64,000 bases of DNA from an uncultured Holophagales bacterium (GCA_963842525.1 CAWJGT010000003.1:1440001-1504000), one strand, 5' to 3'. Positions 48,001 through 60,843 are shown, counted from the stretch's first letter. The notes: generated by a model not told the origin, from the sequence alone. Numbers and translations: made by a program.

Positions 48001-51000
48001 AGCGTGGCGATCGTGGGATGCTGGAGCAGATCGACCAGCGCCACCTCGCGGCTCAGGATGCGGTGGAGGCCCGCCTGCACCTCGCCCAGCAGCAGGGAGT
48101 TCCCGCCGAGATCGAAGAAGTTGTCGTGGAGGCCGACCTGCTCTACCCTGAGAACCTCCCGCCAGAGGGCGGCCAGCTCCTCTGCGAGGGTCCGGCTGGG
48201 GGGCGGCATGTGCTCCGGCAGGCTCCGGCGCATGTGCTCCCGGCGGGTCTTCACCCGTTGGTCGATCCGTCCCAGGAAGCTCGACCGCGCCGTCAGGCAG
48301 ATGGCGAGCCAGGTCGCCGGTGCGGTAGAGGCGTGCCCCGAAGCGATCGGACGGATCCGTCCGATCGGTCGGATCGGTCGGATTCTGCAAAGGATCCGGG
48401 ACGAACCTCTCCGCCGTCAGGTCGGGCCGGTTCCAATAGCCGCGGGCGAGCTGCACGCCGCCGATGCACAGCTCCCCGGCGACGCCGATCGGAACCGGCC
48501 GGAAGGATCGGTCGAGCAGGTGGATGCCGGTATTGGCCACCGGCCGGCCGATGGGCACGGCACCGCCGCGCGCGGCCTCGGCACGGTGGCCTCCCGGCGG
48601 AGCGACGACGAGGCAGGCTCCGGTAATCAGCGGCCAGAAGAGATCCCAGACCGAGACGTCGAAGCTGTAGGGGGTCTTCTGGAGGACCCGGTCGTCCGGG
48701 GTCAGGCCGTAGGCCTCCTGCACCCAGAGCATGCGGTTGACGATGCCGCGGTGGGGGATCATGACCCCCTTGGGCTCATCCGTAGAGCCGGAGGTGTAGA
48801 GCACACAGGCGAGGCTCGTCTCCGGGACTCCGGAGAGCGCCGGCGCGGCGTCACCCCCGGAGGCGTCGCCCCCGGCGGAGCCGTCCCAGCCGTCTTCGAG
48901 CAGGAGGACTCGCGCCGCGACCGCCGGCAGGACCGGGAGCAGCCGCCCCTGGGCGAGGAGCACCGGCACGCGCGCCTCCTCGACCATGCCGGCGAGCCGC
49001 TCGCCCGGGTATTCGGGATCGAGCGGCAGATAGGCGCCGCCGGCCCTGAGAACGCCGAGGAGCGCGATCACCATCTCGGCCGAGCGCTCCATCAGGACGC
49101 CCACGACCACATCCGGGCCGACGCCCAGGGCGCGCAGCCGGCCCGCCAGGCGGCCGGTGAGCCGGTCCAGCTCGGCATAGGTGAGGGTGCGGCCCGCGGC
49201 GGCGACGGCCGGCGCCTGCGGGGCTTGGGCCACCTGGGCGGTGAAGAGATCGTGGAGCAGGACCCCGGCCGGACGCGGCACCGCCGTGTCGTTCCAGGCG
49301 AGGAGGAGCTGATGGGCCTCTGGCGCGGAGAGCAGCGGCAGCTCGGCGAGCCGCGCCTCCGGCTGGCGCACCGCGCCTTCCGCCAGGATGCGCAGGTGGC
49401 CGAGGAGCCGGGCGATGGTCGCCGGATCGAACAGGTCCCGGTTGAATTCCAGGTCTCCGGTCAGGCCGCCGGCCGCCTCGGCCGCCTCGACGGTGGTGAG
49501 GAGGAGGTCGAAGCGCGCCGTGCCGCTTTCGACCGGCACCTGCGCCAGGGTCAGGCCCGGCAGCTCGAGCGCGCCCAGGGGGGCGTTCTGGAGGACGAGC
49601 ATCACCTGGAAGAGCGGCGTGTGGGCGAGGCTGCGCTCCGGATGCAGGCGGTCGACGAGCTTCTCGAACGGCAGGTCCTGCCGGGCGTAGGCGCCGAGCG
49701 TCATCTCGCGCATCCGGCCGAGGACCTCGGAGAAGGTCGGGTCTCCCGCCAGCTCCGCCCGCAGCACCAGGGTGTTGACGAACAGCCCGATCAGCCGCTC
49801 GGTCTCGCTCCGGTCGCGGCCGGCGATCGGAGCGCCGAGCAGCAGGTCCTCCGCTCCGGTCTGGCGGGACAGCAGGGCCGCGAACAGGGAGGCGAGGGTC
49901 ATGAAGAGGGTGACCCCCTGCCGGCGGGAGAGCTCGCGCAGGGCGGCGGCGAGCCCGGCGGGCAGCGCGTAGTCCTGGCGGGCGCCGCGCAGGCTCGGCA
50001 CGGCGGGCCGGGGCCGGTCGGTGGGCAGGTCGAGCACGTGGGGCGCGCCGGCCAGCCGCTCCTGCCACCAGCGGAGCCGGGCCTCCAGGACCTCGCCGTC
50101 CAGCCACCGGCGCTGCCAGACGGCGTAATCGGCGTACTGGACCGGCAGGTCCGGCAAGGAAGGGCGACCGCCCGCGGCGAGCGCGCGGTAGATCTCGGTC
50201 AGCTCGGCGACGAGAACCCCGATCGACCAGCCGTCCGAGACGATGTGGTGCTGGTTGAAGAGCACGGAGTGCCGGTCGTCCGCCAGGCGCAGGACGGTGG
50301 CCCGCACCAGCGGCCCGCGTGTCAGATCGAAGGGCCGCGCCGCCTCGTCACGGGCGAGGCGGCGTGCCTCCGCGGTCCGCCGGTCCTCCGGCAGCCCGTC
50401 CAGGTCGACCCGGGGCGGCGCGAGCCGCGCCATCCGCGCCATCCGGAGGACCGGTGCGATCACCTGCACCGGCCTCCCCCCGGCGAGCGAGAACGTGGTG
50501 CGCAGCGCCTCGTGGCGGGCGGCGATCCCGTCGAGGCTCGCGGCGAGGACGGGCAGAGAGAGAGGGCCGCGGATCTCCAACGCCACCGGCAGGTTGTACT
50601 GGGGGCTCCCCGGCTGTAGCCGGTCGAGGAACCAGAGCCTCTCCTGGGCGAAGGAGAGAGGCAGGCTGCCGTCGCGGGGCGCGCGGACGAGGGGGGGAGC
50701 CGCCGGCGGCGCGCCGCCGCGGCGGGCCTCCTCGACCGCAGCCGCCAGCTCCGCCACACTCGTTCGTTCGAACAGGACACGCACCGGCAGCTCCACGCCG
50801 AAGACGGTGCGCAGCCGCGAGACGACCCGCGTGGCGAGCAGCGAATGGCCGCCGAGATCGAAGAAGCTGGCGCGGGCGCCGATGCCCTCCCGTCCCAGCA
50901 CCTCGGCCCAGATGCCGGCGATCATCTCCTCGGTGGGAGTGCCCGGTGGTGCCGCGGTGCCTGCCGTTGCGGCCTCGACGGGTGCGGGCAGGGCCTTGCG

Positions 51001-58100: not shown

Positions 58101-60843
58101 CGGCCGCATCCAGCCCCGCTGCCAGGCCGCGAAGTCCGCAAACCGGACCGTCGGCCCGGGGGGCGGTGCGGGCGCTCCCGCTGCGAGCGCACCGTAGATC
58201 ATGGCCAGATCCTCCACACAGAGGACCAGCGAGCCCAGGTCGCACACGGCGTGATGAACGGTCAGGAGCAGGCGGTGCTCCTGAGCGTCCAGGCGCAACA
58301 GCCGCGCCCGCAGGAGAGGGCCGCGGGGAGGCTCGAACGGCCGGAACGCCTCCTCCGCGGCCAGGCGCTCCGCCCGGGCCCGCCGTTGCGGCGCGGGAAG
58401 GCCGGTGAGATCCACCACGGGGAGCGCGAGAGCGGGGAGCGCCAGAGTAAGATTCGGAGCGATCCGCTGCACCGGCCGGCCCTGTTCCACCGCGAACGTG
58501 GTGCGCAAGCTGGCGTGGCGCCGCACCAGCTCGCGAAGGCTGCGCTCCAGGCATTCCAGGTCGAGAGGCCCGGCGAGAGGCACCACGGCGGGGATCTGGA
58601 GGGCCGGATCGCCGGGGGCGAGCTGATCGAGAAACCAGAGGCGCTCCTGCTCGAACGAGACGGGGAACGCGGTGTTCTCAGGGGAGCTCAGGGAGCGCGG
58701 GAGCCGGGGTCACCGGCGGGACGCCTGGTGGCGGCGAGCGGGTGCCGATCCGCTCGAGCATCCGGGCTGCCAGGTCCTCGGGAGTCCCGTCCGCCAGGAG
58801 CTCGGCGACCTCCAGGGAGGCTCCCAGAGCGGTTTCGAGCTCGTTGCGGATCTCGACGGCCATCAACGAGTCGAGGCCCAACCCGGCCAGGGGGCGGTCG
58901 GCCGCCACGCGGGATGGAGAGACACGCAAGGCCCGGGCAGCGCAGTCGCGCAGGAAACCGGTGAGCACCGGTGCGCGGTCCTCGGGCGCCAGAGAGAGCA
59001 GGGCGTCGCGGCTCAGCGGAGCAGCGGCGAGCGCGGCCTCGTCCGCTTCGTCCGCCTCGTCTGCCGGAAGCCGGCTGCGCCCCACCTCGCTCAGCTCGCC
59101 CGCCCGCCAGGCGGCCCGGCAGGCCCGGCGACGGACCTTGCCGCTGGACGTCCTGGGCAGCGTCTCGGGACGGATCAGGACGACCTCGGCTACGGCGGCC
59201 TCGTGCTCCTCGGCCACCGCGGAGCGCACGGCTGCGGCGATCTCCTCCACTGTGGCGCTGGCGTGACGCCGCACCTCGTGCACCACGATGAGCCGCTCGG
59301 TGTCTTCCGGGGCCTCCGGCGTCTCCGGGGTCTCCGGGTCGTCTGCGTTCACGCCGAAGGCGGCGCCGCCTCCAGGCAGCAGGTCGGGATGGCTGGCCTC
59401 GGCCGTCCGCTCGATGTCCTGGGGATGCAGGTTGCGCCCGCGCAGGATGATGAGGTCCTTGAGGCGGCCGGTGATCAGGAGCCCGCCGTCCGCCAGAAAG
59501 CCGAGATCGCCGGTGCGCAGGAAGGGACCCTCTCCCCCGGCCAGACGGGCGCCGAACGTTGCGGCGGTCTCCTCGGGACGGCCCCAATACCCCTGTGCCA
59601 CGCTCGGCCCGGCGATCCAGATCTCGCCCTCGCGGTCCGCGGCCAGGGGCTCGCCCGGCGTTCCCATCGATGGGTCGACGATCACCACCCGCTGCCCGCC
59701 GAGCGGCCGGCCGCAGCCGACGAGCCGCCGCGCCGGCTCATCGCCAACCGGCACCTCGATCCGCCCCGCCGCCAGCGCCGCAGCGCCGAACCGGCCCACG
59801 ACCGGCAGCCGGTCCGGATCGCCGCCCGAGACCATCAGTGTCGCCTCGGCCAGGCCGTAGCAGGGATAGGCGGACGCCGCGCGGAATCCGCAGCGCGCAA
59901 ACGCCGCGGCGAAGCGCTCGAGCGTCGCGGCGTGCACCGGCTCGGCGCCATTGAAGGCGACGCGCCACGACGACAGATCGAGCCCCGAGAGATCCGCCCC
60001 GGCGGCCTTGCGCACACAGAGGTCATAGGCGAAGCTCGGGCCGCCGCTGGTGGTCGCGCGGTAGCGGGAGACCGCCTCCAACCAACGCAGCGGGCGCTGC
60101 AGGAACGCGACCGGCGCCATGAGCACGCAGGAGGCACCCGTCCAGGCCGCCTGCAACACCTGACCGATCAGGCCGAGGTCGTGATAGAGGGGGAGCCAGG
60201 AGACGAACACGGAGTCGTGGGAGTGGCCGCAGGCCTCCTGAATCAGGTTCTGGTTGTGCACCAGGTTGCCGTGGCTGACCATGACCCCTTTCGGGGCGGA
60301 CGTCGAGCCCGAGGTGTACTGCAGGAACGCCAGATCGTCGCGGCCCGTCCCGGGATCTAGCCACGCGCGCAGGGGGGAAAGGTCGTCTGCGGCCAACCAG
60401 GGGAGCGGTCCCGTGGCAAGATCCGTTGCGAGCCCATTGCGCAGGCGAGGGAGCCATGTGGACGCGGTGACGGCAACGGCGGGCCGGCAGTCCTCGACGA
60501 GGCCGCGCAGGCGGGGGAACGCTCGCGCCGAACGCGGCGGATAGGCCGGCACAGCCACGATCCCCGCGTACAGACAGCCGAAGAAAGCCGCGACGAAATC
60601 GAGGCCGGGCGGAAAGAGCAGCAGGGCCCGGTCCCCGGGTGCGCAGGAAACCTGGAGAGCGGCGGCGATCGTCCTGGCCCGCCGGTCGAGATCGCTCCAC
60701 GTCAGGTGCTCGGCTTCGGTTGCGCCGTCTTGCAGGAAGGTGAAGGCCTGGCGCTCAGGGTGGCAGCGGGCCCGCTCGCGGAGCGCCTCGTCGACGGTCT
60801 GGAATCCTGGAGCTGATACGGCGATGATTTCCCCTTTTCTCAA
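55131..60843 (-). CDS. FAAL-ACP-C-FkbH(glyceryl transferase/HAD-IIIC)-ACP; frameshift at ~58683
   Basis: FAAL: FLQYTSGST and WLPLYHDLGLIG. ACP: GLDSL. C: VSFEQERLWF and HHAVCDL. FkbH: VAATFTAEP, APYGQLFQQL, VLDCDQTLW, CSRNN, LDDDP, RTNQFN, DRFGDYGLVG and LSCR. ACP: GGHSL. ATGA overlap with the downstream gene. Start codon uncertain. Confidence 0.9.

Follow-up and report, generated by a model that had tools for sequence, protein, structure and literature searches.

What does a glycosyltransferase (GT) do at the head of an NRPS (non-ribosomal peptide synthetase) subunit, directly behind a carrier protein predicted to hold glycerate? The question is raised by a gene cluster in a stretch of 64,000 nucleotides from an uncultured Holophagales bacterium, called here the window (G+C content approximately 70%). 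Between positions 60843 and 50734, with all genes on the minus strand, a predicted fatty-acid--AMP ligase (FAAL) with its acyl carrier protein (ACP), a condensation (C) domain, FkbH, and another carrier are followed by a GT4-type GT domain and by C, adenylation (A), and thiolation (T) domains. The answer that we favor, and rate a little above even, is that this GT represents a family of in-line domains that O-glycosylate the unit held on the upstream carrier (glycerate, Ser, Thr, or Tyr) before a C or thioesterase (TE) domain takes it over. In the window this would give a 2-O-acyl-3-O-glycosyl-glyceryl-Gly cap, a look-alike of glycoglycerolipids; in the minimal cassettes described below it would give glycosyl-glycerates, either free or acylated, along a route that has no relation to the known GpgS-type pathways.

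Domain organization at the subunit interface

The features on which the argument rests are the following.

60843..58678, minus strand: open reading frame (ORF) A, 721 amino acids, with AMP-binding at residues 21-420 and PP-binding at residues 631-694
59089..60783, minus strand: AMP-binding region of the predicted FAAL (Pfam AMP-binding, 5.8e-70)
58762..58953, minus strand: first carrier, ACP1 (PP-binding, 3.5e-14; serine motif LGLDSL)
58586..55131, minus strand: ORF B, with Condensation, FkbH, and PP-binding
57321..58667, minus strand: starter C domain (PF00668, 1.4e-66, profile positions 33-450)
55716..57309, minus strand: FkbH unit, consisting of an N-terminal region (56691-57309) and a HAD-type core (55716-56690)
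55131..55445, minus strand: second carrier, ACP2 (PP-binding, 5.7e-17, at 55251-55445; motif GGHSL), and a C-terminal tail whose stop overlaps the next start
55134..46531, minus strand: ORF C, starting at an ATGA overlap with the stop of ORF B, with GT, C, A, and T in one open frame
54025..55134, minus strand: GT4-type glycosyltransferase domain, approximately 370 residues, at the N-terminus of ORF C
53842..54024, minus strand: linker between GT and C, approximately 60 residues, with a helix-like stretch (residues 376-385 of the structural model are of low confidence)
50734..53841, minus strand: C-A-T module of ORF C, with C at 52495-53841, A at 51007-52416, and T at 50734-50922 (Pfam, NCBIfam)

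The sequence-only reading of this locus had proposed a starter with the order FAAL-ACP-C-FkbH-ACP, an ATGA overlap leading into an in-frame GT4-C-A-T fusion, and a glycine-specific A domain within it. The starter order is borne out by Pfam and NCBIfam matches together with the DxDxT and SCR motifs, and the E-values of all domain matches lie far below chance level. The best NCBIfam matches of ORF A are models of fatty-acid--AMP ligases (NF004509, 4.1e-133); their scores (444.7 bits) stay below the whole-protein cut-offs (775). The FkbH core, at residues 633-957 of ORF B, matches TIGR01686 (1.5e-84; 283.9 bits against a cut-off of 146.65), was recovered again in a search of the genome, and carries DCDQT (the HAD motif DxDxT) and SCR; the functional roles that we ascribe to DxDxT and to the conserved cysteine of FkbH are presumed. 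The N-terminal region of the unit is kept beside FkbH across the related loci. Both carrier serines of ORFs A and B are intact. The active-site stretch of the starter C domain reads HHAVCDLGS, a variant of HHxxxDG, and the domain is presumed to be ester-forming.

The overlap and the fusion likewise hold, as read from ORF C and its Pfam matches: after the GT come C (residues 432-880), A (907-1376), and T (1405-1467), in order and in one frame. A-domain specificity codes were read by anchoring on the core motifs of each domain, and the code so obtained for the first A domain of ORF C agrees with the proposed glycine specificity, its Gly-like label being one that we assume from the code tables.

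Is the GT a genuine enzyme? It matches PF13692 (43.2 bits, cut-off 27) and PF00534 (40.2 bits, cut-off 26.4). An AlphaFold model built on 14 family members has a mean pLDDT of 87.8 and a GT-B fold whose Rossmann-type halves are of high confidence; its best matches in the PDB are sucrose-phosphate synthase and the retaining GT4 enzymes MshA, PimA, and BshA (for these three, Foldseek E-values 3.5e-14 to 7e-13, TM 0.66-0.69). In the family alignment G17, K195, E261, and E287 are invariant in 131/131 members, and position 269 is Glu or Asp in 130/131; we take E261 and position 269 to be the EX7E-type acidic pair of GT4 enzymes and K195 to be the phosphate-binding lysine. The domain thus looks catalytically competent, as predicted from residues and model. 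The opposite view, that the GT has no catalytic activity and acts at the interface between subunits for docking or as a scaffold, could appeal to its constant position at a subunit N-terminus right after the carrier that closes the previous subunit, but is very improbable given GT4 signature residues that do not vary over 131 members and Rossmann-type halves predicted with high confidence.

ORF B ends in an acidic tail (55131-55250, containing LSEEEILVLL). This tail and the helix-like stretch of the GT-C linker may be docking elements, which they resemble; they would bring the carrier beside both GT and C.

The GT follows a carrier in most related loci

Is this arrangement peculiar to the window? 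A search for fused proteins, limited to proteins of 1576-5018 amino acids, returned 123 matches at E <= 0.001 among 8000 candidates scored. The matches listed combine a group-1 GT with Condensation and PP-binding, and nearly all have AMP-binding as well; the sources named among them are Acidobacteriota, Thermoanaerobaculia, Pyrinomonadaceae, Verrucomicrobiota, Kouleothrix, Kofleriaceae, Crocosphaera, and Salinarimonas. In contigs representing one genome per species, at least 498 relatives were found among 631 pattern-matching stretches. The GT-NRPS fusion is thus widespread in uncultured bacteria and not restricted to the window.

The best 80 of the at least 498 relatives were kept for comparison of gene neighborhoods (an earlier scan with a single sequence had given 11, of which 9 were strong). 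Using the window's own domains as tblastn queries on 88 loci (numbered with the prefix L below), we mapped 89 GT blocks; five lack 450 nucleotides of upstream DNA, leaving 84 that can be assessed. Upstream of these blocks lies

an FkbH-ACP directly: 58/84 (57 by automated assignment, plus L076 with a gap of 491 nucleotides)
an A-T module: 13/84
a polyketide synthase (PKS) carrier: 1/84
no carrier within 450 nucleotides: 12/84

At each of the 72 carrier-to-GT junctions, that of the window included, one polypeptide closes with the carrier and another begins with the GT. Fusions across the junction are absent, and 59/72 fall within -4 to +30 nucleotides. On its other side the GT shares one open frame with the following C domain in 25/31 cases and with a TE in 41/45. 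Among the 57 FkbH blocks assigned automatically, 41 have the order FkbH-ACP/GT/GT-TE, 11 have a single GT and then C, four a single GT with nothing detected after it, and one a single GT and then A. The closest relative of the window among the matches listed is L020, from a metagenome-assembled genome (MAG) of Acidobacteriota (63-77% identity per domain), which encodes the same five starter domains in one ORF of 1901 amino acids; this ORF, too, overlaps its GT gene by ATGA. L020 also has an extra gene for a GT1-type (UDPGT/EryCIII-like) glycosyltransferase at 2836-4110 (minus strand), divergent from the FAAL gene; the matching stretch of the window, at 60.9-62.8 kb, yielded no Pfam match. Cultured strains of Paenibacillus algorifonticola (L052, L075) carry the order FkbH-ACP/GT/C-A-T, so the idea is directly testable.

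A second FkbH in the genome of the window (contig C9, L102) has no GT of the window family beside it.

Units predicted on the upstream A-T modules

If the GT acts on the unit held by the preceding carrier, what do the A-T modules load that take the place of FkbH-ACP? The specificity codes of the 13 upstream A domains fall into four classes, of which the Thr-, Tyr-, and Gly-like labels are our assumption from code tables and the Ser-like class alone is anchored in the literature:

Ser-like, five loci: L004, L022, L026, L027, L090
Thr-like, four loci: L028, L057, L072, L079
Tyr-like, three loci: L039, L059, L067
Gly-like, one locus: L082

The anchor is the code DVWHISLVDK of RlpB in the variovoracin system, for which the accessible text of the paper gives an antiSMASH assignment to serine and a product containing L-serine (PMC12964202); the Ser-like upstream codes are identical to it in their first seven letters. 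By the automated count, Ser-, Thr-, or Tyr-like codes occur in 11/12 upstream A domains versus 12/59 other A domains of the same loci (Fisher p ~5e-6, a significance overstated by kinship among the loci). The upstream A domain of L072 was joined by hand and stands outside the automated 12.

One of the Ser-like loci, L090 (10001-14785, plus strand; protein P0074), from a Crocosphaera MAG, reads A(Ser-like)-T and then GT-C-FkbH-ACP-C-A-T. The GT thus shares a protein with an FkbH module, yet stands behind the Ser-like one.

In a FastTree phylogeny of 131 GT domains the window GT is sister to that of L020 (local support 99), and next by path length come the GTs of L027 and L022, both located behind A(Ser-like)-T. 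The labels of upstream context switch often in the fused-GT part of the tree.

Minimal cassettes of FkbH-ACP, GT, and GT-TE

The simplest loci offer an informative example. In L032 a cassette at 6533-12034 (plus strand) encodes an FkbH-ACP of 723 amino acids, a GT of 429, and a GT-thioesterase of 679. It is flanked by a gene for a major facilitator superfamily (MFS) transporter and by the housekeeping genes cysS, panB, and panC, and its Pfam annotation includes no chain-extending enzyme nearby. In three cassettes FAAL and C precede these genes (L048, L068, L094), and in two more a C domain is visible where the contig ends (L021, L081). No NRPS or PKS domain was detected in the 41 minimal blocks, a cassette type of soil Acidobacteriota. 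From its gene content, the cassette of the L032 type looks like a thiotemplated route to a (di)glycosyl-glycerate.

The window locus is a relative of this cassette, not a member. Both have a GT of the same family (41-53% identity) directly after an FkbH-loaded carrier. In the cassette, however, there are two GTs, a thioesterase is joined to the second, and peptide extension is absent, whereas the window has one GT, on a C-A-T that continues as NRPS/PKS.

A proposed mechanism

The following sequence of events would account for these arrangements. The FAAL would load a fatty acid on ACP1, FkbH would load glycerate on ACP2, and the starter C domain would esterify one glycerate hydroxyl with the fatty acyl group; the acyl-loading and the glycerate-loading and ester steps follow the models for vioprolide and corramycin discussed below. 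The GT of the downstream subunit would then move a sugar from a nucleoside diphosphate (NDP)-sugar to the hydroxyl left free, with the unit still tethered to ACP2, and the adjacent C domain would join the acyl/glycosyl-glyceryl unit to glycine. We consider it fairly probable that the locus forms the start of a hybrid NRPS/PKS line for a lipo-glyco-peptide with a decorated glycerate cap.

A carrier-bound glyceryl unit as the putative acceptor is well supported by comparison, because 58/84 GTs follow FkbH carriers, 12/13 of those behind A-T modules follow Ser-, Thr-, or Tyr-like ones, and the GT occurs in 41 minimal FkbH-ACP/GT/GT-TE cassettes. Which hydroxyl would receive the sugar? Glycerate and serine differ only at C2. 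Since the GT clade alternates between glycerate- and Ser-loaded carriers, our guess is that the 3-hydroxyl would carry the sugar and that the starter C domain would acylate the 2-hydroxyl. Acylation at 2-O would then parallel the N-acylation of Ser in relatives with FAAL-C-A(Ser-like)-T.

Several observations weigh against glycosylation on the carrier. The acceptor is read wholly from gene order. The related loci are kin, and their counts overstate the independent support. In 12/84 blocks no carrier lies directly upstream, among them three Paenibacillus loci and a second copy in the genome of the window. Of the other blocks of this kind, L024 has a divergent FAAL-C-A-T gene with a Ser-like A domain, and L091 a Tyr-like A-T 2 kb upstream. 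The second copy (L101; G000:C14:68000-87900) is a GT-C-A-T gene whose GT (8486-9598, minus strand) is 57% identical; ORFs with WD40, NB-ARC, and MacB-like similarity lie between it and a Thr-like A-T 7.6 kb upstream, and it neither supports nor refutes a carrier-linked GT. Six of the 31 GT-to-C junctions are not in one frame, mainly in Firmicutes, where the GT is a separate ORF, so the fusion is not essential. L082, with its Gly-like upstream A domain, is an exception to the hydroxy codes (a FAAL-C-FkbH-ACP unit lies one module further upstream), and three of the four code labels are assumed, as stated above. Finally, a second frame change and a truncated end in the window line mean that it may make no product here, a matter taken up next.

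Is the window copy intact?

The first alternative to be weighed is that the window holds a decaying, non-productive copy, its frame breaks being real mutations and the line truncated; the window would then preserve the architecture as a fossil, even if relatives have it in working order. Three defects within 19 kb speak for this, the first of them between the FAAL-ACP and the C-FkbH-ACP:

58681..58684, minus strand: CCCC run (GGGG on the plus strand), abutting the TGA of ORF A; one surplus base splits FAAL-ACP from C-FkbH-ACP

The frames of ORFs A and B lie one base apart at this run, and the first core motif of the C domain is encoded in the frame of ORF B (read from 58709, the preceding stop) upstream of any start codon. 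We compared contigs from four public metagenome runs over 58200-59200. Two of them bridge the site, those of X3 and X4 not extending across it: one (X1 record 1) lacks one base at 58681 and the other (X2 record 9) lacks 10 bases from 58677, a net -1 in 2/2, which would place FAAL-ACP and C-FkbH-ACP in a single frame. At most 0.14 of the sampled words were present in any public sequencing run. L020 reads through the same five domains. The frame break thus appears not to be ancestral, and the sequence-only reading, which had repaired an indel in a C run at this place, was right to do so. As the source of the surplus base, we consider an assembly error distinctly likelier than a mutation.

The second and third defects lie further along the line:

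47988..50667, minus strand: next module, with C at 49303-50667, a relic A domain at 48280-49243, a frame change, and T at 47988-48179
42096..47927, minus strand: ORF D, with a ketosynthase (KS) at 46422-47927, T at 45762-45953, C at 44355-45698, A at 42897-44306, T at 42624-42812, and C at 42096-42563

The relic A domain is missing its entire C-terminal subdomain as well as part of its core (by the residue numbers of two intact A domains used as queries, the part between approximately 215-234 and 277-319); the A5 motif was not found in it, and the frame changes between it and the T domain, at 48203-48280. The relic looks natural, because L020 has at this position a plain C-T module without an A domain. 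The last C domain of ORF D is cut approximately 164 residues in, just past its HHxxxDG motif; no remainder of it was found in any frame within 36-43 kb, and no release domain, whether TE (sought with one query) or reductase (R), was detected on the minus strand between 42 and 61 kb. Beyond it, within 38000-42563, the G+C content falls to approximately 66%, and there are two unrelated ORFs without a Pfam match, one with a nucleotidyltransferase-like motif seen by eye. The end of the line near 42.1 kb may reflect an insertion, a deletion, or a mis-join, and the cluster may be incomplete.

Other parts of the genome speak for assembly errors instead. Clean frame switches in mid A domain occur at approximately 4742 and 18261 in the window's other minus-strand NRPS genes, with a further switch near 20.3 kb. 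The genome's rpoB gene (G000:C9:670320-674532) appears split: it matches the family model in two frames, with residues 3-69 in a frame of 88 amino acids and the remainder in one of 1375, while rpoC is intact; the split of rpoB is probably an assembly indel error. Together with the clean switches within domains, it points to assembly indels. In ORFs A to C, both GC3 (G+C content at third codon positions) and the domain motifs are intact, and the relic A domain has a natural counterpart in the C-T module of L020. On balance we regard decay of the window copy as unlikely.

The A domain of ORF D (42897-44306) also has a code that we assume to be Gly-like. Its KS (46422-47927) is followed by a KS-acyltransferase (AT) linker, but no AT stands between this and the carrier that comes next; the line would require either a trans-acting AT or a KS that does not extend the chain. 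Neighboring genes downstream are

38589-40502, plus strand: sulfotransferase-SCP2 protein
36808-39099: DUF5916 protein

Two more assembly lines lie in the window: a KS-AT-T-...-(C-A-T)n line at 3-27918 (minus strand), which runs off the window start, and a divergent FAAL-C-A-T-KS-...-T gene at 28204-36660 (plus strand).

Tailoring after release, and prodrug maturation

Might the GT be an ordinary tailoring enzyme, acting after release or on a late intermediate, with its NRPS fusion or adjacency serving co-expression? The acceptor then need not be glycerate. Most known natural-product GTs act after release. The general pattern thus favors such a role, as do the free-standing GT ORFs of the Firmicutes relatives and the 12/84 blocks lacking a carrier directly upstream. 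Against it, the GT follows a carrier with a predicted hydroxyl-bearing unit in 70/84 blocks (58 FkbH; 12 Ser-, Thr-, or Tyr-like) and always opens the next polypeptide. Moreover, the TE on the second GT of the cassettes would need a carrier-bound substrate, and release beforehand would only regenerate glycerate. We therefore find late tailoring rather improbable.

A third alternative follows the logic of the vioprolide prodrug: export would strip off the acyl group and perhaps also the sugar, as transient handles, and the mature product would be no glycolipid mimic. In the accessible text on these systems, the fatty acyl group on the glycerate-derived cap is hydrolyzed during vioprolide maturation, and the same is proposed for corramycin (PMC10099666). 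A transporter gene upstream of the line would fit:

62812..63999, minus strand: MFS transporter gene (PF07690, 1.2e-24), cut by the window end

The transporter could be an exporter, its membership in the cluster being uncertain; the ORFs between it and the line, at 60.9-62.8 kb (approximately 65% G+C), have no Pfam match. No hydrolase partner was identified among the window ORFs scanned, however, and the FAAL-C-FkbH-ACP/GT/GT-TE cassettes, in which no peptide part was detected, suggest that an acyl-glycosyl-glycerate can be an end product. Removal of such groups at export is thus doubtful, more so than tailoring after release. Among the same window ORFs no NDP-sugar biosynthesis domains were found.

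Implications

Non-ribosomal peptides are generally regarded as being glycosylated late, by free-standing tailoring enzymes. If the reading proposed here is true, a GT that works on units bound to a carrier would represent an in-line tailoring domain of a new kind, with a simple rule for genome annotation: the sugar sits on the unit loaded just upstream. The domain would be a portable part for engineering glycolipopeptides, and the GT family, FkbH, and thioesterase together would define a thiotemplated route to glycosyl-glycerates and acyl-glycosyl-glycerates. The genes occur in very common uncultured soil phyla (Acidobacteriota, Chloroflexota), and surfactants, membrane-active lipids, or ecologically important solutes are among the conceivable products.

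Comparison with known systems

How much of this architecture has been seen before? In the open-access literature (MIBiG and subscription papers being outside our scope) we found no description of a GT domain fused to an NRPS, or of a GT coupled to FkbH. The FAAL-ACP-C-FkbH-T half is already published; the in-line GT half is apparently undescribed.

The starters of vioprolide and corramycin (ComK) are the closest counterparts. In the accessible parts of the two papers they are described as FAAL-ACP-C-HAD(FkbH)-T, the glycerate loaded by FkbH being esterified by the C domain with a FAAL-activated fatty acid (PMC10099666, PMC8949500), so that the same first five domains stand in the same order as in the window. 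In those parts a GT domain heading the following subunit is not mentioned, and the acyl group is presented as a transient pro-drug handle, whereas in the window a hydroxyl of the glycerate is predicted to be glycosylated on the carrier.

In loading modules of the suomilide and dysinosin type the FkbH-loaded glycerate is methylated and sulfonated, according to the accessible text (PMC8609519). Here, too, an N-terminal glycerate cap is decorated on its hydroxyls, as we predict for the window; the decorations described there are methyl and sulfate, with no GT domain, in contrast to the acyl group and sugar predicted here.

Two glycosylated families are instructive in other ways. Myxoglucamide is a glycolipopeptide of a FAAL-primed NRPS/PKS, for which the authors infer early glycosylation during assembly; its GT, MxgF, is encoded by a gene of its own, a hydroxylated fatty acid bears the sugar, and the accessible text mentions neither FkbH nor glycerate (PMC13638107). 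The cystomanamide synthetase has, as far as its accessible description goes, a C-FkbH-peptidyl carrier protein (PCP) module in fourth place, and the family is glycosylated (PMC9581180). It shares with the window an NRPS with an FkbH glycerate module, in mid-line there versus in the starter here; the fructose occurs in analogues C and D, which lack the glycerate residue, and the domain string as given contains no GT (PMC9581180).

On the side of the enzyme, the nearest characterized folds are the retaining GT4 enzymes MshA, PimA, and BshA, which have the GT-B fold and the EX7E-type acidic pair in common with the window GT at only 16-21% sequence identity. They are free-standing and use soluble or lipid acceptors, whereas the predicted acceptor of the window GT is a unit bound to a carrier protein. 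BshA, according to the titles of its PDB entries, makes N-acetylglucosaminyl-malate, and its acceptor is thus the hydroxyl of a small hydroxy acid.

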